Assembly: GCA_004563595.2 (NCBI GenBank) | Contig: CP042461.1 | Location: 720,001-752,000, forward strand | From: Candidatus Saccharimonadota bacterium | Lineage (GTDB): Bacteria > Patescibacteriota > Gracilibacteria > BD1-5 > UBA6164 | Length of the DNA: 32,000 nucleotides | Direction: 5' to 3' | Shown: one piece after another, positions 2,388-31,920 of the stretch | Position numbering within the stretch: position 1 is the stretch's first letter | How the letters are laid out: each line of letters starts with the position of its first letter | Notes under the pieces: generated by a model | Seen by the model: the letters and a program-made list of their open reading frames with translations, nothing else | What the model was told of the DNA's origin: nothing | Database searches by the model: none | Made by a program: the position numbers and the translations under genes

Positions 2388-2775
2388 CACAGCAAGGGCA
2401 GGTACCTACCTATTTTTCTTTGAAAATTAGGAGGAAAGTCTGGACATCATGAGGATAATCGTAGAAGATAACTACTTCGGCTTACATATATAATTCATAA
2501 AATGTAAGTACCACTAGTGCCACAGAGACTATACTAATTCTAACTCGTTAGAATGAAAGGTGAAAAGTCATTTGATGTAAGCAATTGCTACAAATGATGC
2601 TATGATGTGAGTTATAGCGTTGGTAAACTGTACGTGATGCAATGGGAATGGTATTTTTATTTTGATACATCCTCTACTGCAATATAAAGATATACTCAGC
2701 TCGAGCATATGGGTGACCATATGCCTAGATAGATTGGTACCTAGATACAGAATCCGGCTTATTACTCTTGCTAAA
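2388..2775 (+). ncRNA. rnpB: RNase P RNA, bacterial type A
   Basis: Universal motifs occur in the correct order: ggaggaaagtctggac (compare GAGGAAAGUCCGGGC), agtgccacagagac, aaggtgaaaag, ggtaaactg, gcctagatagatt and acagaatccggcttat (compare ACAGAACCCGGCUUAU). P1 pairs agcaaggg (2391-2398) with ctcttgct (2765-2772). P2 pairs aggtacc with ggtacct. Confidence 0.9.
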
Positions 2776-2794
2776 TTAAAAATTTTTGGTATAT

Positions 2795-2843: not shown

Positions 2844-3452
2844 ATGAAATTAGTGTTTACATGAATACAAGGTTGTGGGAAATGAACTCAAGCGAGATTT
2901 CTCGTTGAAAACCATGGTTTTACTCTCGTTGAAATGGGGTGAGAATTTAGAAAAATTATAGCAAGTTGAAGTAACTTATGATTACAACTTAAAGAAATAT
3001 TAGACTCATGAGCACAGGTAAATGCTGAAATGTGAATCGCAGTCATGGAAGAAGCTATTGCAAGACAAACAAATGAGAAAATAATATTTGATGCATTTGT
3101 AAGAAATGATTGGAATAAAGTAATTTTTGACAGAGAATTACCGGAATACCAAGTAATTTTCTTTAATTTATCAGAAGAAAAAGCAAAACAAAGGCTTCTC
3201 GGAAGAATGTTTAATTCCACAACAGGTGAGACTTTTCCTTATGGAACAAAAATAGATCCAAAAACAGGAGAAAAACTCATTCATAGAAGTGATGATAATG
3301 AGGAATCTATCCTTAAAAGAATAGAAGAATATACAACAAAAACTCTTCCTATTCTAGAGTTACAAAAAAAAGAATGAAGGGTCCTTGAAATTAATGCTGA
3401 TCAGTCGGTAGAAGAAGTAGCAAAAGAAATTGAAGAAAAACTAGGATTATAA
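2844..3452 (+). CDS. adk: adenylate kinase (202 aa)
   Basis: The protein starts MKLVFTGIQGCGKGTQARFL (P-loop), with two of the P-loop Gly encoded by TGA (2862-2864 and 2883-2885). Also present are HRSDDNEESILKRIEEYTTKTLPIL and EINADQSVEEV. The frame matches track ORF 3045-3377. Confidence 0.9.
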
Positions 3453-3467
3453 TATAATAATAAAACA

Positions 3468-4622
3468 ATGTATTGATTTCTTCTATGAAGAGAGTTTAAA
3501 TTATCTCAAGCTGAATTACTCACTGTATTTTCAAGTAATAGTATTGTATATCAAAGTAAAGAGATTTTGATCTTAGATTGATTAAAAAAAGATGATATTC
3601 TAAATACAGCATCTTTTTTATGATGAACGATTAAAATTATTGAAATAGTTGAATCTGAAGAGACAATAGAAAACCTCATACTTGATTGCGTAAATACAGA
3701 TACAAAATTTAAATATGGTCTGAGTCTCTATGGAGAAAAAAAATCACTCAAAGAAATTCTTAATAAGACAAAGAAACTTCTAAAAGAAGGGTGAATTTCA
3801 TCACGTTTCGTAAACAAAGATTTTAACAACCTCAGTTCAGCTCAAATTAAGTGAGAAAATCTTATAAGAAAAGAAACTGACTTTACTTATATTATAACTT
3901 CAAAAGTAAATTATTTCTGAAAATCTATTTGGGTACAGGATATTGATTCATATTCATCTAGGGATTATTCAAAAGAAAGAGATATGCAGGTTGGTATGCT
4001 TCCACCAAAGTTATCACAAATGATGGTGAATTTATCAGAATGAACTACGGTATATGACCCATTTGTATGACTGGGTACTATCCTCATAGAATCTCTTCTT
4101 ATGTGAAATAAAAAAGTATTCTGAAGTGATCTCAGTGAAAAAATGGTAGAAACGTCTACTGCAAATATCAAGAAACTTATTTCTGAAAAATCACTGAATG
4201 CTGACTTGGATATATTTAAGCTCAATGCTAAATTTATAGAAGAATCTGAGTATTTTAATGAATGAGTTGATGCTATTGTTACAGAGTGATATCTTGGTGA
4301 GATAATGACAAAGAAAAACATTGCTCCTGATAGAGTACAAAAACAAAGGGATCCTCTTGAGAAAATATATCAAGCATTCTTTGCCTGACTACAAAAAATT
4401 AACTATTCATGAGCTATTGTAATATCTTTTCCATTTTGGGAAATCAGATGAAAATATTATTATTTTGACGAGGTATATAAAATACTATGAAAATATTGTG
4501 AAGTACTTCCCTACTTCCCTACTGACTATCAAGTCCAAGCTTCAAAGTCATGAAGTCTATTATATAAGAGACCAAGTCAATTAGTTTGAAGAGAAATATT
4601 TAAATTAAGAATGAAAAAATAA
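3468..4622 (+). CDS. SAM-dependent RNA methyltransferase, UPF0020/Trm11-like (384 aa)
   Basis: The table-25 frame is continuous and contains 20 in-frame TGA codons. Motif I is VYDPFVGLGTILIES. The motif IV region is DAIVTEGYLGE, in place of (D/N)PPYG. The substrate cannot be assigned by eye. Confidence 0.65.
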
Positions 4623-4647
4623 AACACCAAAATTGGTGTTTTTTATT
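4621..4647 (+). terminator. rho-independent terminator after the methyltransferase gene
   Basis: Stem aacacca (4623-4629) pairs with tggtgtt (4634-4640) around a 4-nt loop, followed by a tttttt run. Confidence 0.7.
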
Positions 4648-4674
4648 TGACTTAACAAATAAACATTTTATACT
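4647..4674 (+). promoter_or_regulatory. sigma70-like promoter candidate for the 186-aa membrane protein gene
   Basis: TTGACT (4647-4652), a 16-nt spacer, then TATACT (4669-4674). Confidence 0.35.
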
Positions 4675-4766: not shown

Positions 4767-5327
4767 ATGTCTAAAACAAAAATATTTTTTCTTGCAATTT
4801 TTATAGTAATTCTTAATGCACTACCTACAATAGGAATTGTAGTTACTAATTACCTTAACGAAGGCTTGATGCCTCATGTTATTGGATTAATAATGTTTGC
4901 GTGGATAATTGCAACATTCGTAATGGCAGAGTATTTAAGAAATCAAGATACCTTAAATACGATTGACATAGCATCTTCTATACTTTCTTTTGGAGCTGGG
5001 TGTACTTTAGTATTCCATTTCTATGATATGGATATATTAGCTTTGGGAACTATTGGCTCAGTTATTGATTATAATAGAGATTTAACTATCTATACTCAAT
5101 TATTTGGTTCATTCATCGATTCAATTTTGATTGGTATTTTTATAAATTTTTATAAAAATATACGAAAAAAACAAGAATACTCCATAAAAAATGAAGCGGT
5201 TGAAAATAAACAAATCATTGCATTAGAAAATACAATAACTGATTTAGAAGATGACAATACAGATCTGAGGGCAGAACTAGAAAAAAGCAATCGGAAAATG
5301 AATAAAGAATCTGCTATTGCTGCATAA
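4767..5327 (+). CDS. hypothetical multi-pass membrane protein with C-terminal coiled coil (186 aa); TGA-free
   Basis: ATG at 4767 lies 6 nt after the SD-like aagggga. There are 4-5 hydrophobic spans (IFFLAIFIVILNALPTIGIVV and others). The acidic/basic heptad-like tail is ENKQIIALENTITDLEDDNTDLRAELEKSNRK. The gene ends in a double TAA TAA stop. All 9 Gly are GGN. Confidence 0.7.
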   Translation: MSKTKIFFLAIFIVILNALPTIGIVVTNYLNEGLMPHVIGLIMFAWIIATFVMAEYLRNQDTLNTIDIASSILSFGAGCTLVFHFYDMDILALGTIGSVIDYNRDLTIYTQLFGSFIDSILIGIFINFYKNIRKKQEYSIKNEAVENKQIIALENTITDLEDDNTDLRAELEKSNRKMNKESAIAA

Positions 5328-5344
5328 TAATTGACTTAACTAAA

Positions 5345-5378
5345 ATAAAGACTGGATTACTCTAGTCTTTATTTTTTA
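5345..5378 (+). terminator. rho-independent terminator
   Basis: Stem ataaagact (5345-5353) pairs with agtctttat (5364-5372), followed by a T-run. Confidence 0.6.
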
Positions 5379-5531
5379 TATTAACTCACCCTTAATCATA
5401 TATCTAACCAACTCCACTAACTCAACATTTACTAAGTCTCATATTTTCACTCAATCTTCATCTACTTTAAAAACACCTCTTTAAAGTATCTCGTTCTTTC
5501 AAAAACAATATAAGTCCTTGAATCATCAACC
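5376..5531 (-). pseudogene. duplicated, frameshifted 3' fragment of miaB (TRAM-domain end)
   Basis: The minus strand reads ...KVDEDGVKIGDLVNVELVELVRYMIKGELI*, against ...[30 protein letters not shown] at the real miaB end (6240-6396). A 1-nt deletion (tttttt to ttttt) breaks the frame upstream. There is no start codon and no upstream gene body. Confidence 0.75.
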
Positions 5532-5550
5532 AGGTAGAATAATTTTTAAC

Positions 5551-5578
5551 TTGACTTTATAGAAAAATATCCTATATT
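5551..5578 (+). promoter_or_regulatory. sigma70-like promoter candidate for the 177-aa membrane protein gene
   Basis: TTGACT (5551-5556), a 16-nt spacer, then TATATT (5573-5578). Confidence 0.4.
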
Positions 5579-5636
5579 TTTAGTACATTTTTTTAGCATT
5601 AGTCTATTATGAAATAAACAGATTAGGAGAAAAACA

Positions 5637-6170
5637 ATGGTACTTGAAATAAAGCAAGAAACAGCTCTCAAAAATACGAGAAGTATTAATTTTCGTGAAT
5701 GGTTAGACCTATTTAAAAAATTGAAGAAACAAGTAACTTCATTAATAGTACACTGCCTACCCATAATTCTTACTTCATTTATTTATATATTTGATATTTT
5801 TTCAAATATAGGAACTGAATGTATGATAATGACACCTGATACATTTTCTACTGCAAGAGCGATGATATTTACAATACTAATACTATGGGTATTTCGTTCA
5901 AGATTCTTTGCAAGTGATTTAAATCCATCACGAAAGAAAGTATTAACAGGTATTATTAGTTCTATTCTTAATTTCGCATTTATAGTCTGCTGTATGACGA
6001 TAGGGTTAATAGATTATCATCTAGATTCTGGCTTAACTCGCCAAGATTATTATAGTATAATTTTTCTGATTTCTATTGCTAGTATGGCAAATATTGGATT
6101 TGTATTAAATACAAATAGAGAACTCTTTCTCGTAAATAAAAATGTTAATAAAAATAGGGTAGTAAACTGA
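5637..6170 (+). CDS. hypothetical 4-TM membrane protein (177 aa if TGA stops; 203 aa to TAA 6246-6248 if TGA=Gly); TGA-free body
   Basis: ATG lies 6 nt after SD aggaga (5625-5630). The basic N-terminus is followed by four hydrophobic spans. All 5 Gly are GGN. The first in-frame TGA (6168-6170) sits exactly where a standard-code stop would be, just before the terminator hairpin. Confidence 0.7.
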   Translation: MVLEIKQETALKNTRSINFREWLDLFKKLKKQVTSLIVHCLPIILTSFIYIFDIFSNIGTECMIMTPDTFSTARAMIFTILILWVFRSRFFASDLNPSRKKVLTGIISSILNFAFIVCCMTIGLIDYHLDSGLTRQDYYSIIFLISIASMANIGFVLNTNRELFLVNKNVNKNRVVN

Positions 6171-6206
6171 AATAATAATGACTCAAAATTAAAAGTCATT
6201 CGTACC

Positions 6207-6236
6207 AAAAAAAGCGTATCATTGATACGCTTTTTT
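6207..6236. terminator. bidirectional rho-independent terminator (gene at 5637 and miaB)
   Basis: Stem aaagcgtatc (6211-6220) pairs with gatacgcttt (6224-6233), flanked by an A-run on one side and a T-run on the other. Confidence 0.7.
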
Positions 6237-6239
6237 AAT

Positions 6240-6396
6240 TTATACTAATTCACCCTTGATAACATATCTATCTAACTCTACTAATTTAACATTTACTAAA
6301 TCTCATACTTTTACGCTTCCCTCTTCTGCTTTAAAAAAGACCTCTTTAAAATTTCTTGTCCTTCAGAAATAATATCAATCCTTAAATCAATTCACA
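6240..6396 (-). repeat. copy B of the roughly 155-bp miaB 3'-end direct repeat (copy A is 5376-5531)
   Basis: By-eye alignment gives about 75-80% identity with one indel. Both copies start right after a terminator hairpin. Confidence 0.75.
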
Positions 6397-7694
6397 AGTA
6401 TTTCTTGAACTGAATCAAGCATTCTCCCATTTCTCTTTATAACATTTTCCAATAATACATCATTCAGTATATGCCATCTCTCTGCTTTTACAGAATCAGG
6501 AACATCGTCAGGATATATCTTACTTGCTATAGTCCCCTTTCTTACTGAATATCTCGCAGTATATGCAAAATCAAACTCACATTCACGGAATGCTTTTATA
6601 GTATCTTGAAACATCTCTTCTGTTTCTCATGAATATCAAACAATAATATCTGTTGATATTGAGAAAAAAGGGTCCTTTGATCTGAGATACTCTACTTGTT
6701 TTTTGAAGTCCTCATATGTATGTCTTCTATTCATTTTCTTTAGTAGAGTATTACTTCCAGATTGAAGAGCAAAATGAAGATAATTACATGAAGAATCTAA
6801 CTTATGATGAGCATCTAAGATATCCTGAGTCATATCATGAGGATTACTTGAAGTAAAACGGATTCTATCTAATCCTTCTAGTTCATTTAAGTCATCAAGA
6901 AGTTTTCTAAATGGTGATTTTCATAATCCATCATTCCACATGGACTTTTCTTCATTCCAAAGTTTTATATTCGATTGTTTTCAATATGAATTTACATTTT
7001 GTCATACAAGACTAATTTCTTTGGTCCCATTTGCAACAAGTTCGCGAGCCTCTGATATGATTTCATCATGTGATCTACTAATTTCTTTCCCTCTTGTATA
7101 TGGGACAATACAAAAGGTACAATAATTATCACATCATGTTTGAACTATGACTGAAGCTGAGTATGGATTTTCTCTAAGTTGCTTAGATTTAAGATAATCA
7201 TCGAACTTATCATCTGATCATATGGCTTCTCAATGAATATGAGTCAGAATAAATGATAAATATTTAACCTCTTCTATTCTCAAAGTAAAATCTAAGCTCT
7301 CTAGTCTTGGAAATAATTTATCATCATTATTAAATATTCCATTTTTATCTGTAATATATTGAATTTTTCTTGCTCTTTTTCTATTTATATCCTCAGCAAG
7401 GTACATTTTATGGAGTCATGTCTTTCTGACCATACAACCTGTAATCCCAGTAATAATTCTTTTAGGATTTCCATCGATTTCTCTCTGAGCATTTTCTTTT
7501 CTGATTTCTTCCGACATACCAAAAACTCTATCTTCTCATTTTTGCCTTACAGAACAGGTATTATATATCACTAAATCCGCATCTCTCCATTCTGATGTTT
7601 TTATAAGACCTGATTGTAACAAGATCATATTGATCTTCTCGCTATCAGCTTTGTTCATCTCACAACCAAATGTCTTTATATAGTATTTTTTCAT
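6240..7694 (-). CDS. miaB: tRNA-2-methylthio-N6-dimethylallyladenosine synthase MiaB (radical SAM methylthiotransferase, 484 aa)
   Basis: N-terminus is [21 protein letters not shown]...[18 protein letters not shown]. The radical-SAM cluster is [19 protein letters not shown]-terminal TRAM domain is present. The 1455-nt frame agrees with track ORFs 6387-6614 and 6636-6833. Confidence 0.9.
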
Positions 7695-7881: not shown

Positions 7882-8265
7882 ATGGAGAATTCAGGGACTA
7901 CTAATACATTTAGTAAAAATCAGTGAGTTTTAACTACGCTTCTTGATAGTGACTTCAATAGGTTTGATAAGATTAAAATTAAATGAGAACCATTTTGAAT
8001 AATCTCAATAAAAAGAATAGTGCATGCTAGGTGATTTATGATACGATATTGAGTAAATGCACACCCTGCTCTACGAGCAAAAGAGCTTGCTGTTACACTA
8101 GGTCAATTTAATAAAATACTACATCAACCGGGTAATACTAAAATAGGACTAGAACTGAGCTCTCCAACCCTAATAATAACAGGTACAATGCTGAATAAAA
8201 AAATTGAATGAGTAGTTGAAGATATCAATAAAAATGCAAATAAAACTCTTAATAGAGATCGTTAG
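7882..8265 (+). CDS. hypothetical protein (127 aa)
   Basis: Table-25 ORF MENSGTTNTFSKNQGVLTTLLDSDF... contains 6 in-frame TGA codons and ends in TAG. It overlaps dcd convergently by 17 nt. No family recognised. Confidence 0.5.
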
Positions 8266-8824
8266 AAATTCTACTCTCTTCAGGAAGCACTTGGTTCATA
8301 TACTTGCTTCCTTTTCTTTTGTCATAAGTATTTTCAACTTCTCATACAATAGTTTCAAAAGCGAACTGCCCAATCCTCATACCTGTATATAGAGCAATAG
8401 GAACTTCATTTATATTTGTCATTTCCAAAGTGATAGTCCCCTCAAATCAAGGATCTATAAACCCTGCTGTTGAATGAATAATAACTCCGAGCCTTCAAAT
8501 AGAACTTCTTCATTCACATCTTGCTACAAGATCGTATGGAATTTTTATTTTTTCAAGAGTCACTCATAATACAAAATCACCCGGATGGAGTACAAACTTA
8601 TCTCAATCTTGAAGTGTAATTGTCTCTACATGATCTGGATCCACTCCATTTCTTGAATCTATTACTGTTTGCCTTGATTTTCTAAAAATCTTAAAAGAAT
8701 TCCCAAGCCTAAAATCTAAACTTGCTGGTCAAATTTGATCAAGGACTTTGTAATCTCATAGAGAGAGAACTTCCATATCTCAAGATTCCAGCCTTCTTCT
8801 TATTTCTGTATCTGATAGTATCAT
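8249..8824 (-). CDS. dcd: dCTP deaminase (191 aa)
   Basis: Motifs seen: MILSDTEIRRRLE, QIGPASLDFRLG and [37 protein letters not shown]. Confidence 0.9.
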
Positions 8825-9856: not shown

Positions 9857-11338
9857 TTACTGTCACAAAGTTTTTAAAGTATTTTCTAGTCTCTTAATTG
9901 ATGTATCAAGCCCCAATATATACATCATTTCTAAAGCTCCAGGTGAAAATTCTTCTCACGATAAAGCTACTCTTGTTGGCCATAAAACTTGTCCGTTTTT
10001 CATTTCTGCTTCTTTGATTTTTTCAACAAATACATTTTTTACATCATCCACAGATTCAAAATCAGATGATTGAGATTGTAATACATTTAGAGTAAGTTCT
10101 AATCATTTTTTTACAATATCTAAGTCTGTGATTTTCATTTTTTCATTCATCAATAAATCTGATGATGGATTTTTAGCATCCCCGTAGAAGAAAGTTGTTA
10201 AATTTTGTAGTTCATCAAACTTCTTTATTCTTCATTTAAGCTCTGATAATATTTTTTTATTATATTCTTCTGGAAAACTTTGAAGCAGATCATAAAAATC
10301 TGAATTATATCTTTTTAAGTAGGTTAATAGTTTATTATAAATATCTGAAATATCAGATTTTTTTAAATAATTTGAATTAAAGAAATCTAGTCTTTCTACA
10401 TCAAAGATAGCACCTGATTTATGAACTTGTTTCAAATTAAATTTCTCAATTAATTCATTAATGGTAAAAAATTCATCTGTAGTTTTTGGGTTCCAACCAA
10501 GAAGTGCAATGTAGTTAATAAGAGCCTCGGTTAAATATCCTTTTTCTAAATATTGTTCAACGGCTACATCTCAAGTTCTTTTCGAGAGTTTTTTCTTATC
10601 ACTTCAAAGTAAAAGTGGAATATGTGAAAAAACTGGAGCTTCCCATCAAAAAGCTTCATACATAAGTACATGTTTTGGAGTTGATGGTGTCCATTCATCT
10701 CATCTTATTACGTCAGTAATTCACATTAAATGATCATCTACTACATTTGCAAGATGATAGGTAGGAAACCCATCAGATTTTAACAATACTTGTTCATCTA
10801 TATCTTTAGAATCAACCTCAATTTTTCATTTTACGGTATCATAGAAGATAACTTTTCTCGCTTCAGGAACTTTGAGCCTTACTGTATAGGGAATTCAACT
10901 CTCTAATTTTGCCTGAATTTCATCATCGGATAAATATCTACATAATTTATCATATTTTGTTGCCAATCAAAGTTCTTTTTGTTCTGTTCTAAGATTATCT
11001 AGTCTTTCACTACTGCAAAAACAATAATATGCTTTATCTTTTTCAATCAGTTCATCTATATATTTTCTATATATCTCCAGTCTTTCAGATTGATAATATG
11101 GTCATTTTTCTCATGGATTATTTGGTCCTTCATCTGGAATAAGTCAAACTGAAGCAAGTACATGAATCATATTTTCAATACTCCCTTCCACAAGTCTTGT
11201 TCTATCCGTATCTTCCACACGAAGCATAAACTTCCCATTATGTTTTTTTGCATATAAATAGTTATATAAAACAGTTCTCAAACTTCAAATATGTAAATAT
11301 CATGTTGGACTTGGTGCAAATCTTGTAATTACTGTCAT
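9857..11338 (-). CDS. gltX: glutamate--tRNA ligase (493 aa)
   Basis: HIGH motif is RFAPSPTGYLHIG, with both Gly encoded by TGA. KMSKS-type motif is [17 protein letters not shown] is also present. The frame matches track ORF 10232-10435. Confidence 0.92.
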
Positions 11339-18313: not shown

Positions 18314-18512
18314 ACCTCTCACTTGAATTCTCTCCCCTTAACAGGGGAAAGAGGCTACATGTTCATATTATATTGAAAAAATATTGAGTTCTCACTTCGA
18401 AGTTCTTTATTTTAAGATAAATATACCCAATTAAATAAAACTAAGTTTAAATATAGTTTTATAAGATGCAGCCCTTTTCTCCTGATAAGGAGAGAAGATT
18501 CAGATGAGAGGT
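18314..18512. repeat. MITE-like element: 47-bp imperfect terminal inverted repeats around a roughly 105-bp AT-rich core
   Basis: The left arm (18314-18360) is acctctcacttgaattctctccccttaacaggggaaagaggctacat. The reverse complement of the right arm (18466-18512) is acctctcatctgaatcttctctccttatcaggagaaaagggctgcat. That is 37 of 47 matches. Each arm also folds into its own G+C-rich hairpin. Confidence 0.6.
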
Positions 18513-24422: not shown

Positions 24423-24824
24423 ATGGAAAATAGAACTTACGTTTGCCCAAATTGTTGATTTAATGATTTAGCATGAACATATAGTGTATGTAGGGTATGT
24501 ATGTGGGAGGAAGATTTAGATTGAAAAATATATCCCCTTATAGCAACTTGACCTAATAATAGCTTGTATGATGAACAACAAAAAATTATAAAAAAATATC
24601 CATTATCGATCAAAAAAACTATTTTTTTTGATAAGTATGAGAATAAAAATTTTATGATAATGCGATCAAGTAGTTGGAAGCCAATAGATATAGGAGATAT
24701 AAAATATAAAGATAAGCCTTTCATTGAAAAATGGTATTATGAAGATTATATAAAATCTATTTATTGAGATGATTACAATCATTTATTTGAAGAAGCTCAA
24801 GAATATAACCCTACTGATTATTAA
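24423..24824 (+). CDS. CPCC-type cysteine-rich zinc-ribbon protein (133 aa), candidate immunity protein 1
   Basis: MENRTYVCPNCGFNDLAGTYSVCRVCMWEEDLDG...GPNNSLYDEQQ matches the CxxC...CxxCxWE(D/E)D signature of the Cysteine-rich CPCC domain. The C-terminal part reads KDKPFIEKWYYEDY...EAQEYNPTDY. Confidence 0.8.
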
Positions 24825-24965
24825 AGTAAAAAAATGATTGAAGAATTTTGAGAAATATGAACGTTTTATTAATTTGAATCATTAGAAAAGCAAATTAGTA
24901 AAATTGAGTGAATAGTTAGTAGATGAATAATTATTTCTTGAAAAAAATAAATTTTAACTTTATAT

Positions 24966-25343
24966 ATGAAAACAGAATATTTTATGTGTATATGTTGTTG
25001 ATTTTATACTTTAAAAAACCCTTTTGACTCCGAGGGTATTTGTAAAGTTTGTAAGTGGCAAGATTCAGCTAATGATAAATTTTATCCTTATTCAACATGA
25101 TGAGCAAACATTGATAATTTAGTGAATTCACAAGAAAAATTAGGATTTCTAAATGGTATGAAAGAATTTGATTGATATATTAGAAACCCTAATTGGAAAT
25201 TACTTACTGGAATCAAAATTAAAGATAAACCTTATGTTGAAAAATGGTTTTATAAAGATGTACTAGAAATTTATAACTCTGAATATTACGAAAAAATCTA
25301 TAAAGAAGCCCAAAAATATAACCCTACTGATTATGAAATATAA
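24966..25343 (+). CDS. CPCC-type cysteine-rich zinc-ribbon protein (125 aa), candidate immunity protein 2 (paralog)
   Basis: The N-terminus is MKTEYFMCICCGFYTLKNPFDSEGICKVCKWQDS...GGANIDNLVNSQE. The shared C-terminal part reads KDKPYVEKWFYKDV...EAQKYNPTDYEI. Confidence 0.8.
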
Positions 25344-25663
25344 AGATTTCTTTAAAAGTTTTCTAAAAATGATTATCTGAACAATGGTATGATATATGAT
25401 TTGAATGTTAGTTATTATATGATTATTTTTATTATATGTATATATAGCACTTCCTACAAAAATCTGATACTAAAATATTGATTTAAAACTTTATAATAAT
25501 TACAAATACATGATAAATTTTAATAAATACATTGATTTACATAAGAGTTTAGCCAATGAAAAATTCATATCAGAAGCAAAAAGGATTTCTAAAAAATTAA
25601 ATAGTATTTGAATTATTGAAATATAAAAAAAATAAAAACCCTTAAAACTATAAAAACTTCTAA

Positions 25664-29934: not shown

Positions 29935-31920
29935 ATGAAAAAAATACTTTCAATACTTTTGATTTTCTGATTATTACTTCAAAGTTTATTTGTTACAGGT
30001 ACTGCTTATGCAGTAGAAGAAACAACTGTAGATATTGATGGATTATATATGCCTCAATTTGAAGATCCTCTTTTTAAAGAAAATTTTCTAAACAATATAA
30101 TCAAAAATAACTGATTTAATTTACAAGCAGGAGATAACTGAATACCAATTACTACACATGGAGCAAACTATCCTACATACTCTCCTGATGGGAACTATAT
30201 TGTTTATTCTAATAAAGATGGTTCACACTATATATATAAAAAAAATAGTTCTGATAATTCAACTGGTATCCAGTTAGGAACAAAAATAAGTCGAGCTCTT
30301 GTTTATACTCCTGATGGTAATAATCTTATATATACAAATTATAATGATTGATATGCTATATATAAGAAAAGTGCTAATGATCTTGCTAACTGAAACTGAA
30401 TTACAAATTATTATTGATATTACCCTCAAGTTTCACCTGATTGAAATGATTTATATTTTGTAATAAAATGATCTAATACTTATAAAGTCTATAAAAAAGC
30501 AATAAATGCACCAATAAATGACTGAGATCTAATAATTGATAAAGAAGTATACTGGATATCACTTTCTCCAGATTGAAATAATTTAATATATAAAGACTGA
30601 GCTAATAATCTTTTATACAATAGAGATTTAGTAAATAACACAACTAAACTAATTACAAGTGTTGGTTGAGCAACATTCACATATTCTCCAGATTGAAAAT
30701 ACCTAATTTATACAAATGAAAGTGATTGATATAAACTTTACAAAAAAGATCCAAACACCTTGTCTAATGGGACGGCAATAAATAGTGTATCTTCATTCTA
30801 CCCTGCATTTTCTCCTGATTGAAAATACTTAGTTTATACGAATATCAGTGATGGATATAAAATGTATAAAATTGAGATGCCTTTTGTCACTGAACTATGA
30901 TCAATAACATCTACTCAAACAGTTATTAATTCTAATAATGAAAATTCAGTAGATTTTTCAATTAGCTGAATTAAGGATACAGATAGTGGAAATACAATCA
31001 CTTATAGCTATTCTTTTAATAATTCCACTTTTACAAATCTACCTGTTACAAATACAAGTCCAATATCAAATGGGACTTATAATTTTAATTTAGATTTATC
31101 AAGTAGACCATCTTGAGATATTACGGTATATATAAGAGCAAATGATGGAAGCGAAAATTCTAATGTAGTAAGTATAACTCTTGTAAAAAATAATACCCCT
31201 ATTCTTGATTCATTAACTTCAACTCAAACAGATATAAACTTAGATAATGTTTTAAGTCTAGATTTAAAAGTGAATTGAATCAATGATCCTGATACATCAA
31301 ACACTCTAAGCTATAGTTACTCTTTTGATAATATCGATTTTACTGATTTAACGGATACTTGAATCTCACCAATTTCAGATGGAAATTATAATTTTGATTT
31401 AAATCTCTCATGACAAGATGATGGATTAGTCAACATATATGTAAAAACAAATGATTGATATGAAAATTCAAACACGGTAAGTTTAGCTTTAAATAAAAGT
31501 GCTACATTATTAGTCCCAACTGCACCTTCAGCTGTGAATACAAATAATATATCATTAAACTGAGCAACATATAGTTGGACTGATAATTCAGAAGGTGACA
31601 ATAGAGAGTATAAACATGTCATTAAAGATCAAGATAATAATATTATAGTTGATGAAATTTGAGCAAATGCTACAAATATTATAGAATCATGATTAACTCC
31701 AAATACGTCATATCAAAGAAAAATATGTGCAGTAAATGATGCATGAGAAGCTTGTAGTATACTAATAAATTTTACTACAAAAATAGAAGTAACATGATGA
31801 AAAACAACTACCTTTGACTTTGCATGAATTGTCATCAATATTGTTGAAACACTTGAGATGTTTAAAGTAGAATTTAATATCTGAGAATTTAAAATTAATT
31901 TTAGTATTGAAAAGATATAA
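29935..31920 (+). CDS. secreted TolB-like beta-propeller protein with tandem Ig-like repeats and an FN3-like domain (661 aa)
   Basis: Signal peptide is MKKILSILLIFGLLLQSLFVTGTAYA. There are six PD40-type blades (YSPDGNYIVY, YTPDGNNLIY, VSPDGNDLYF, LSPDGNNLIY, YSPDGKYLIY, FSPDGKYLVY). The frame ends at TAA 31918-31920. Confidence 0.85.
30150..30880 (+). other. six PD40 (WD40-like) beta-propeller repeats
   Basis: The x-SPDG-x-x-L-(I/V)-Y ... Y-K-(I/L/V)-Y-K-K periodicity repeats six times. Several of the SPDG Gly codons are TGA. Confidence 0.8.
30901..31518 (+). repeat. intragenic tandem duplication: two 309-nt (103-aa) Ig-like units
   Basis: Unit 1 (30901-31209) reads SITSTQTVINS...YSYSFNNSTFTNL...ISNGTYNFNLDLS...VYIRANDGSENSN. 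Unit 2 (31210-31518) reads SLTSTQTDINL...YSYSFDNIDFTDL...ISDGNYNFDLNLS...IYVKTNDGYENSN. Confidence 0.8.
31516..31780 (+). other. fibronectin type III-like domain
   Basis: PTAPSAVNTNNISLNGATYSWTDNSEGDNREYKHVIKD...GLTPNTSYQRKICAVNDAGEA fits the FN3 pattern of a conserved W, a T-x-Y and an A-x-N-x-x-G. Confidence 0.55.

Follow-up and report, generated by a model that had tools for sequence, protein, structure and literature searches.

A decayed duplicate of the miaB 3′ end beside a TGA-free gene in a recoded Gracilibacteria chromosome is probably an insertion scar

How did a chromosome come to carry the last ~155 bp of miaB twice, once as the end of the gene itself and once on the far side of a short gene that miaB has no part in? 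The question arises in a 32,000-nucleotide stretch of Candidatus Saccharimonadota bacterium (Gracilibacteria; GenBank assembly GCA_004563595.2, contig CP042461.1, positions 720,001 to 752,000, forward strand), referred to here as the window and numbered from its first base. In it, miaB and a convergent methyltransferase gene enclose a gap with two small membrane-protein genes, which we call cassette genes 1 and 2 (cas1 and cas2). The window has 28% G+C and its genes are unbroken only with TGA as a sense codon: 20 confident native genes contain 399 TGA and 233 GGN codons, TGG is still in use, and all stops are TAA or TAG. This is the pattern of genetic code 25, in which TGA encodes glycine; the nearest MiaB relatives are all from metagenome-assembled genomes of Gracilibacteria. 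We conclude that the distant copy of the miaB end (copy 2) is the scar of an insertion that kept miaB intact, with a probability of about 0.8, and that it is probably a non-functional relic of one old insertion in the lineage of the window.

We aligned positions 5300–5640 with 6140–6480 by the Smith-Waterman method and used 300 shuffles as the null. Segments 5367–5525 and 6230–6389 match at 127 of 162 columns (78.4% identity, five gap columns) with a score of 142, whereas the shuffles gave 23.7±3.0 and at most 39. The duplication of about 155 bp proposed in an initial annotation of this DNA is thus real. A repeat finder reports the same pair, spaced 864–865 bp apart, and in a blastn comparison of the window with itself the pair is the strongest internal repeat (79% over 152 nucleotides, E=5e-29) and has no third member. 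On one side the homology ends sharply at the stop codon and terminator, on the other ~20 bp short of the cas2 −35 box. Beyond these limits the two units are no more alike than shuffled sequences, be it in their coding regions, their promoters or their terminators, and the two terminators, T1 and T2, are unrelated in sequence. A further likeness between the stop regions of the two cassettes, suspected in the initial annotation, does not hold up (score 22 versus 17.2±2.8, a value reached by 21 of the 300 shuffles).

The two copies differ in condition. Translated from the minus strand in code 25, copy 1 forms the C-terminus of a full-length MiaB (484 aa) that has the Pfam domains UPF0004 and Radical_SAM, a TRAM match below Pfam's cutoff, and orthologs in more than 150 Gracilibacteria loci. 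Copy 2 encodes the same ~51 residues, and its TGA codons can still be read as glycine. However, it has acquired three indels within 155 bp, two of them frameshifting, and its peptide must be read in frame 2, then 0, then 2, with a stop codon inside the shifted stretch; there is no gene body upstream, in agreement with the first description of this fragment. Radical changes affect residues that are otherwise invariant (N to Y in RTRNFKEV, D to V in LDRY), and all 67 orthologs compared are closer to copy 1 than to copy 2. Copy 2 therefore reads as a pseudogene fragment, and copy 1 as the working end of miaB.

The two copies exactly flank cas2 and the promoter and terminator that belong to it, as had been proposed. 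Between them cas2 is the only gene, and it has no family match; the other medium-sized proteins of the window are housekeeping proteins. The promoters preceding cas1 and cas2 are the joint best matches of the region, and the units are closed by three strong two-way hairpins (T0, T1 and T2; Table 1). The 10-mer TTGACTTAAC had been taken as a hint of repeated cassette boundaries. It does occur twice, at 4647 and 5331, but the sites are not equivalent, since one is a −35 box that follows a terminator and the other precedes a terminator, and the 11 identical 10-mer pairs counted do not exceed the 12.4±5.9 expected. With unrelated terminators, no repeated boundary sequence and no integrase, the idea of a cassette-exchange site is not supported.

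We next to this sequence set 158 related loci, gathered from two collection scans and one protein search and labelled by L-numbers. The methyltransferase gene and miaB are convergent neighbours in 32 of them, as in the window. The gap that separates them extends from 22–25 bp in L020 (11452–11477), which is effectively an empty site, to 5.9 kb in L004 (11452–17309). Its genes vary by lineage and are TGA-rich, and the only Pfam matches among them are SLT-like, RelA/SpoT-like and MscS-like. Pfam scans found no integrase or other mobile-element gene in these gaps, one open reading frame (ORF) that resembles ribonucleotide reductase, by eye only, being outside the scan. Across Gracilibacteria this gap stands out as a hotspot where genes turn over; it lies within a few kb of dnaA and is filled with unrelated genes. 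No second miaB end was detected in any of the 158 loci by Smith-Waterman comparison with their own gaps, by tblastn with code 25 or by blastn; the Smith-Waterman score for the gap of L019 was borderline (z≈3.4). Nor does any of them hold a relative of cas2. Relatives in which both miaB ends are under purifying selection, named in the initial annotation as the mark of a functional element, are thus not found: the relatives lack any second copy, and in the window copy 2 is clearly degenerating.

The closest relative, L159, is a 3.6-kb contig found via the 90% cluster of MiaB, with nucleotide identities to the window of 81.5% over miaB and 80% over the methyltransferase gene. Its gap contains a TGA-rich 141-aa gene and a gene for a 175-aa membrane protein with a coiled-coil tail, which adjoins the methyltransferase gene and is oriented like cas1; cas2 and a second miaB end are absent. 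Because L159 has an ortholog of cas1 but neither cas2 nor copy 2, cas1 predates the split of the two lineages, and cas2 and copy 2 are specific to that of the window. As no relative has the duplicate or cas2, the insertion event is likely to be old and lineage-specific.

Table 1. Features of the miaB–methyltransferase gap and its surroundings (window positions)
Feature	Position	Strand	Remarks
dnaA	680-2098	-	
RNase P RNA	2390-2777	+	
adk	2844-3452	+	
Methyltransferase gene (mtase)	3468-4622	+	Pfam UPF0020/N6_N4_Mtase; convergent with miaB, other border of the variable gap
T0, two-way terminator	4621-4642		Junction of methyltransferase gene and cas1
cas1 promoter	4647-4674	+	TTGACT-16-TATACT; includes the recurring 10-mer; conserved in L159
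cas1 (cassette gene 1)	4767-5327	+	186-aa membrane protein, coiled-coil tail; ends TAA-TAA
T1, two-way hairpin terminator	5342-5375		After cas1; abuts the copy 2 stop codon; folding z = -6.9 and -5.5
Copy 2, decayed miaB 3′ end (pseudogene fragment)	5376-5531	-	
Out-of-frame part of copy 2	5469-5494	-	From 1-nt deletion (5469) to 1-nt insertion (5494)
cas2 promoter	5551-5578	+	TTGACT-16-TATATT; 10/12 matches; starts ~20 bp from the end of copy 2
cas2 (cassette gene 2)	5637-6170	+	177-aa membrane protein without homologs (ORFan); ends TGA
T2, two-way hairpin terminator	6208-6236		Common to cas2 and miaB; folding z = -5.7 (+ strand), -4.7 (- strand)
Copy 1, functional miaB 3′ end	6240-6396	-	Last ~52 codons and stop codon
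miaB	6240-7694	-	484 aa with code 25; 14 in-frame TGA = Gly
dcd	8249-8824	-	
gltX	9857-11338	-	

To date copy 2 we used a three-way comparison with L159, which assigned 21 changes to copy 2 and 6 to copy 1 and left 17 sites at which the copies agree and L159 differs. Copy 2 has evolved ~3.5 times faster than copy 1, a rate as would be expected for neutral decay. Copy 1 and L159 are 81% identical over the last 155 bp, the same value as over the whole gene. If copy 1 and L159 were sisters, the clock test (6 versus 17, p=0.035) would give an odd rate difference for two working genes, and rooting with six outgroups found five shared derived sites that unite the copies, as against three and three for the alternative groupings. 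Because of these two results, the comparison weakly suggests that copy 2 is a duplicate of the lineage's own miaB end that arose after the split from L159. Differences between the copies are distributed 7/6/18 over the codon positions. We considered this third-position excess as proof of two genes that worked in different genomes, but it is not decisive, because one neutral and one constrained copy predict a ratio of ~1:1:1.8, with which the counts are compatible. The excess fits an own-lineage duplicate and does not require a foreign allele.

These data can be accommodated in a model in which the ancestral order was miaB, terminator T1, cas1 and methyltransferase gene, and ~865 bp comprising a promoter, cas2, T2 and a duplicate of the ~155 bp with which miaB ends were inserted at the 3′ end of miaB. 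A circular DNA that carried the 155 bp would integrate by a single, Campbell-type crossover within them. Homologous recombination could have made this crossover, or else a site-specific recombinase that is no longer present. Of the two copies, one would complete miaB and stay under selection; the other would be stranded beyond the insert and decay. The topology is that of a single crossover because the order is gene body, working end, insert, stranded end, and we put the chance of a single-crossover route, whether site-specific or homologous, at slightly better than even. The initial annotation had pointed to site-specific integration, perhaps decayed or integrase-independent. Its attL/attR-like topology, an intact miaB and inserted DNA at a site that relatives leave vacant or occupy with other genes are all observed; of site-specific recombination itself no sign was found, neither an integrase in the window nor an exact core longer than 12 nucleotides.

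Several observations weigh against this model. No integrase, excisionase or transposase was found in scans of the 32-kb window that covered all but its three largest proteins, which agrees with the integrase-free picture drawn initially. As the insert measures only ~0.7 kb, a large additional deletion has to be assumed for a site-specific element. The copies share no recognisable att core, their longest exact run being 12 nucleotides (5424–5435), although a divergence of 22% could have obliterated one that was once there. With no homologs of cas2 anywhere, neither a donor nor an element can be named, and in G+C content (0.28) the insert does not differ from the genome. The rooting depends on one close relative, the 3.6-kb contig L159. 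Moreover, if copy 2 derives from the window's own lineage, the incoming DNA must already have held host DNA, for which homologous recombination, or an element that excised aberrantly and then integrated again, is a better fit than a classical foreign attP. Finally, the duplication may have come first and cas2 later, in place of another gene; its ORF is intact, in contrast to copy 2 with its three indels.

The arrangement has a well-described counterpart in Escherichia coli, where the element e14 starts 165 bp inside icd and a displaced 165-bp pseudogene, icdC, lies at its far end (PMC6379469). In NC_000913, e14 occupies 1196209–1211412, icd ends at 1196373 and icdC spans 1211413–1211577; icd and icdC are 92.7% identical, 11 of their 12 differences are at third codon positions, and both frames are open. 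With e14, and likewise with phage 21, the element supplies the working end of the gene and the displaced end remains at the far border as a pseudogene, forming a direct repeat whose length (165 bp) is close to that observed here (155 bp). In contrast to the insert in the window, which measures 0.7 kb and has no recombinase, e14 is 15 kb long and encodes intE and xisE. The copies in the window are also less alike (78%), differ at all codon positions (7/6/18) and are separated by two frameshifts, as in an older and decayed case, and what is stranded here may have been duplicated within the lineage instead of being a foreign allele. The window appears to show the e14/icd layout at a greater age, in a decayed state and on a much smaller scale.

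The main rival is one-sided or illegitimate recombination without a circular intermediate, or a template switch during replication. In the one-sided route, DNA of a related strain with the order miaB–T2–cas2 would be anchored by homology in the body of miaB and its far end joined 155 bp upstream of the resident stop codon; by this route or by a template switch, the resident 155 bp would be stranded as copy 2. Homology-facilitated illegitimate recombination is known from naturally transformable bacteria. It would produce the same arrangement in one step and needs no integrase, in keeping with the absence of one. The gap between miaB and the methyltransferase gene is lineage-variable, so donors with other contents exist, and the rooted counts of 5/3/3 are compatible with one copy having come from a sibling lineage at roughly the distance of L159. 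Yet there is no known donor in which cas2 adjoins miaB, the clock test favours the two copies as sisters, and miaB shows no breakpoint or step in identity relative to L159 (81% overall and in the last 155 bp). In the present group the mechanism would be hypothetical. We regard this rival as unlikely.

A tandem duplication of a unit of ~864 bp (miaB end, terminator and cassette gene), followed by divergence or replacement of one gene, would explain why the units are nearly equal in length, with a spacing of 864–865 bp, and why they share a layout of promoter, ~180-aa four-helix membrane ORF, two-way terminator and miaB end. The cas1 family evolves very fast (~25% protein identity, against ~81% nucleotide identity in the flanks), and cas1 and cas2 show a marginal protein similarity (BLASTP E=0.087, matched by 2 of 500 shuffles). 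However, DNA similarity is confined to the 155 bp, with terminators, promoters and coding regions scoring like shuffles. Since 78% identity persists in a neutral fragment of that age, the synonymous sites of true paralogs should be recognisable too. Comparison of cas2 with the cas1-family profile (hhalign) gives a probability of 4%, and L159 has a single unit. We reject tandem duplication, which is improbable because only the 155 bp are alike.

Could copy 2 have been kept for a function of its own, as a spacer or upstream-promoter (UP) region for the cas2 promoter, as an antisense or small RNA, or as a target for cassette swaps? Its position between a terminator and a promoter, its survival as a recognisable block and the gene turnover in the gap would suit such a role, but this explanation is very improbable: copy 2 is absent from all relatives, including L159, has no Rfam match in its region, lacks a repeated boundary motif and has changed ~3.5 times as much as copy 1, indels included, as in neutral decay. 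Least likely of all is an assembly artefact that joined two strain variants of the region downstream of miaB head to tail, an error conceivable in sequence from uncultured organisms with a gap that varies between lineages, because copy 2, being 22% diverged, frameshifted and mutated at invariant residues, is no working co-occurring allele, the cas2-promoter junction has no shared sequence that could mislead an assembler, and cas1 and cas2 are found in several sources, on two to three contigs that include one of 1.34 Mb.

Having weighed the routes by which the insert might have arrived, we turn to what it carries. The genes cas1 and cas2, side by side in the gap, are the only genes of the window without in-frame TGA. 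Their 364 codons include none, whereas 16.2 would be expected (Poisson P≈1e-7), and all 14 glycines are encoded by GGN (P≈1e-6); the off-frames of the two genes contain 4–7 TGA each. GGC makes up 3 of these 14 glycine codons, as compared to 6 of 632 in native genes. Each native gene has at least four in-frame TGA, which account for 40–89% of its glycine codons and for 63% overall. The cas1 ortholog of L159 (2367–2894 of that contig, minus strand) is likewise free of TGA over 176 codons, in a neighbourhood where TGA takes 72% of glycine codons and where 10% of the codons of the adjoining gene are TGA. This ortholog was found by synteny: it is ~25% identical to cas1 (BLASTP E=1e-5), the coding sequences are saturated at all codon positions (identity 0.41/0.54/0.42), and the promoter and ribosome-binding site layout is conserved, with a promoter region that can still be aligned. 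Because the L159 ortholog is TGA-free and yet saturated in sequence, the TGA-free state of cas1 does not appear to be a leftover of recent transfer, but would have persisted through selection or through recurrent replacement with genes of a TGA-free pool.

The end of cas2 bears on how the gene fares in its host. In code 25 its TGA stop should be read through for 26 more codons, across T2, to a TAA at 6246–6248 that overlaps the miaB stop codon; the product would have 203 aa, and public gene calls give this form. Transcripts that end at T2 would have no stop codon, and because the TGA end is predicted to be read through, cas2 may be poorly adapted to the host. The AlphaFold model of cas2 has four long helices at low confidence (predicted local distance difference test score, pLDDT, 58). 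Searches for cas2 returned only self-hits among 5.8 billion proteins (word-indexed search) and 1.84 billion proteins (exhaustive HMMER search). One candidate, P0003, was rejected as a repeat-driven false hit. No homolog of cas1 was found in the word-indexed search of 5.8 billion proteins, and the L159 ortholog is the sole one found. Neither gene has a relative on viral contigs, by single-sequence searches or with a two-sequence profile, nor a Pfam, PHROG or PADLOC match, the PHROG hits being no better than E=0.013.

Phage morons are single genes with their own promoter and terminator that lie between other genes and often encode small membrane proteins for exclusion or conversion. The two cassette genes share these traits, each being a single ORF that encodes a small membrane protein and is framed by a near-consensus σ70 promoter and an intrinsic terminator; they have no homologs apart from the L159 ortholog of cas1, and cas1 evolves very fast. 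They differ in that they are chromosomal and lie between housekeeping genes, with no phage gene in the window and no match to PHROG or viral contigs. Integron cassettes are also short single-gene units of one orientation in a variable region, but the units here have separate promoters and no attC-like element in common, an integrase is absent, and the 10-mer occurs at chance level.

A parallel in coding may be found among the viruses of this group. Many predicted Gracilibacteria phages have no in-frame TGA and use back-up stops, whereas all integrated prophages in the same survey of Gracilibacteria and Absconditabacteria phages are TGA-rich (PMC10746230). As in these phages, which are compatible with code 11, the cassette genes are TGA-free in a host that reads TGA as glycine, and cas1 has a back-up stop (TAA-TAA). 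Unlike the phage genes they are chromosomal, with no sequence link to any phage found, and cas2 ends in TGA with its next in-frame stop 26 codons on, past the terminator. In the insertion model, cas2, which is standard-code-like as is cas1, would probably stem from a TGA-free mobile or phage pool that circulates among Gracilibacteria.

It is conceivable, if doubtful, that the absence of TGA from cas1, its L159 ortholog and cas2 is actively maintained, making them 'dual-code' genes in a code-25 chromosome. Repeated exchange with a TGA-free phage or mobile pool could achieve this, with the miaB–methyltransferase gap as a landing pad. Alternatively, the genes could have to be translatable when UGA decoding is disturbed, for example if a standard-code phage infects the cell and they act as membrane proteins for exclusion or abortive infection. 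A release factor as a phage weapon against UGA decoding is pure speculation and is not mentioned in PMC10746230. If TGA absence is indeed maintained, the duplicate of the miaB end would be the only physical trace so far of the entry of such DNA.

Some further features of the locus and its surroundings may be recorded. In many relatives MiaB has an in-frame insertion of ~190 aa at one site, after LWNxExxxW and near residue 258 of the window protein, which itself has no such insertion. Examples are L055 (9526–11607), L056 (10001–12034), L132 (10001–12031) and L137 (10001–12064), with ~15 more; by eye the insertion resembles a HAD-type phosphatase or nucleotidase in L055, L056 and L132 and a DUF559/Vsr-like endonuclease in L137. 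The public entries P0001 and P0004 are translated with TGA as tryptophan (code 4) and have W at each TGA position; MiaB from the code-4 public source is 97% identical to the code-25 translation. The RNase P RNA between dnaA and adk is a full-length member of bacterial class A (160 bits). Elsewhere in the window, two tandem paralogs with a Cys-rich CPCC domain (24423–24824 and 24966–25343) can be aligned as DNA in their 3′ parts (24701–24835 with 25215–25347, 75%), and the gene of a secreted-looking 661-aa protein (29935–31920) holds DNA repeats at 30304–31488 that are 66–82% identical, in units of ~125–310 bp. An intergenic inverted repeat (18314–18378 and 18446–18512; 67 nucleotides, 75% complementary) lies upstream of a gene for 1883 aa.

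The repeat is a textbook-type scar of a known kind, a gene end duplicated by a gene-preserving insertion, and as such it adds one example from an uncultured, recoded group with almost unknown mobile-element biology. The content of the gap is the more useful lead: standard-code-like genes in a genome where TGA is the main glycine codon, one of which, cas1, is TGA-free in two lineages while its protein sequence has diverged almost completely. Chromosomal TGA-free genes lying by an integration scar would be direct evidence that standard-code DNA enters these genomes and persists in them, and they bear on whether a changed genetic code really bars gene transfer.

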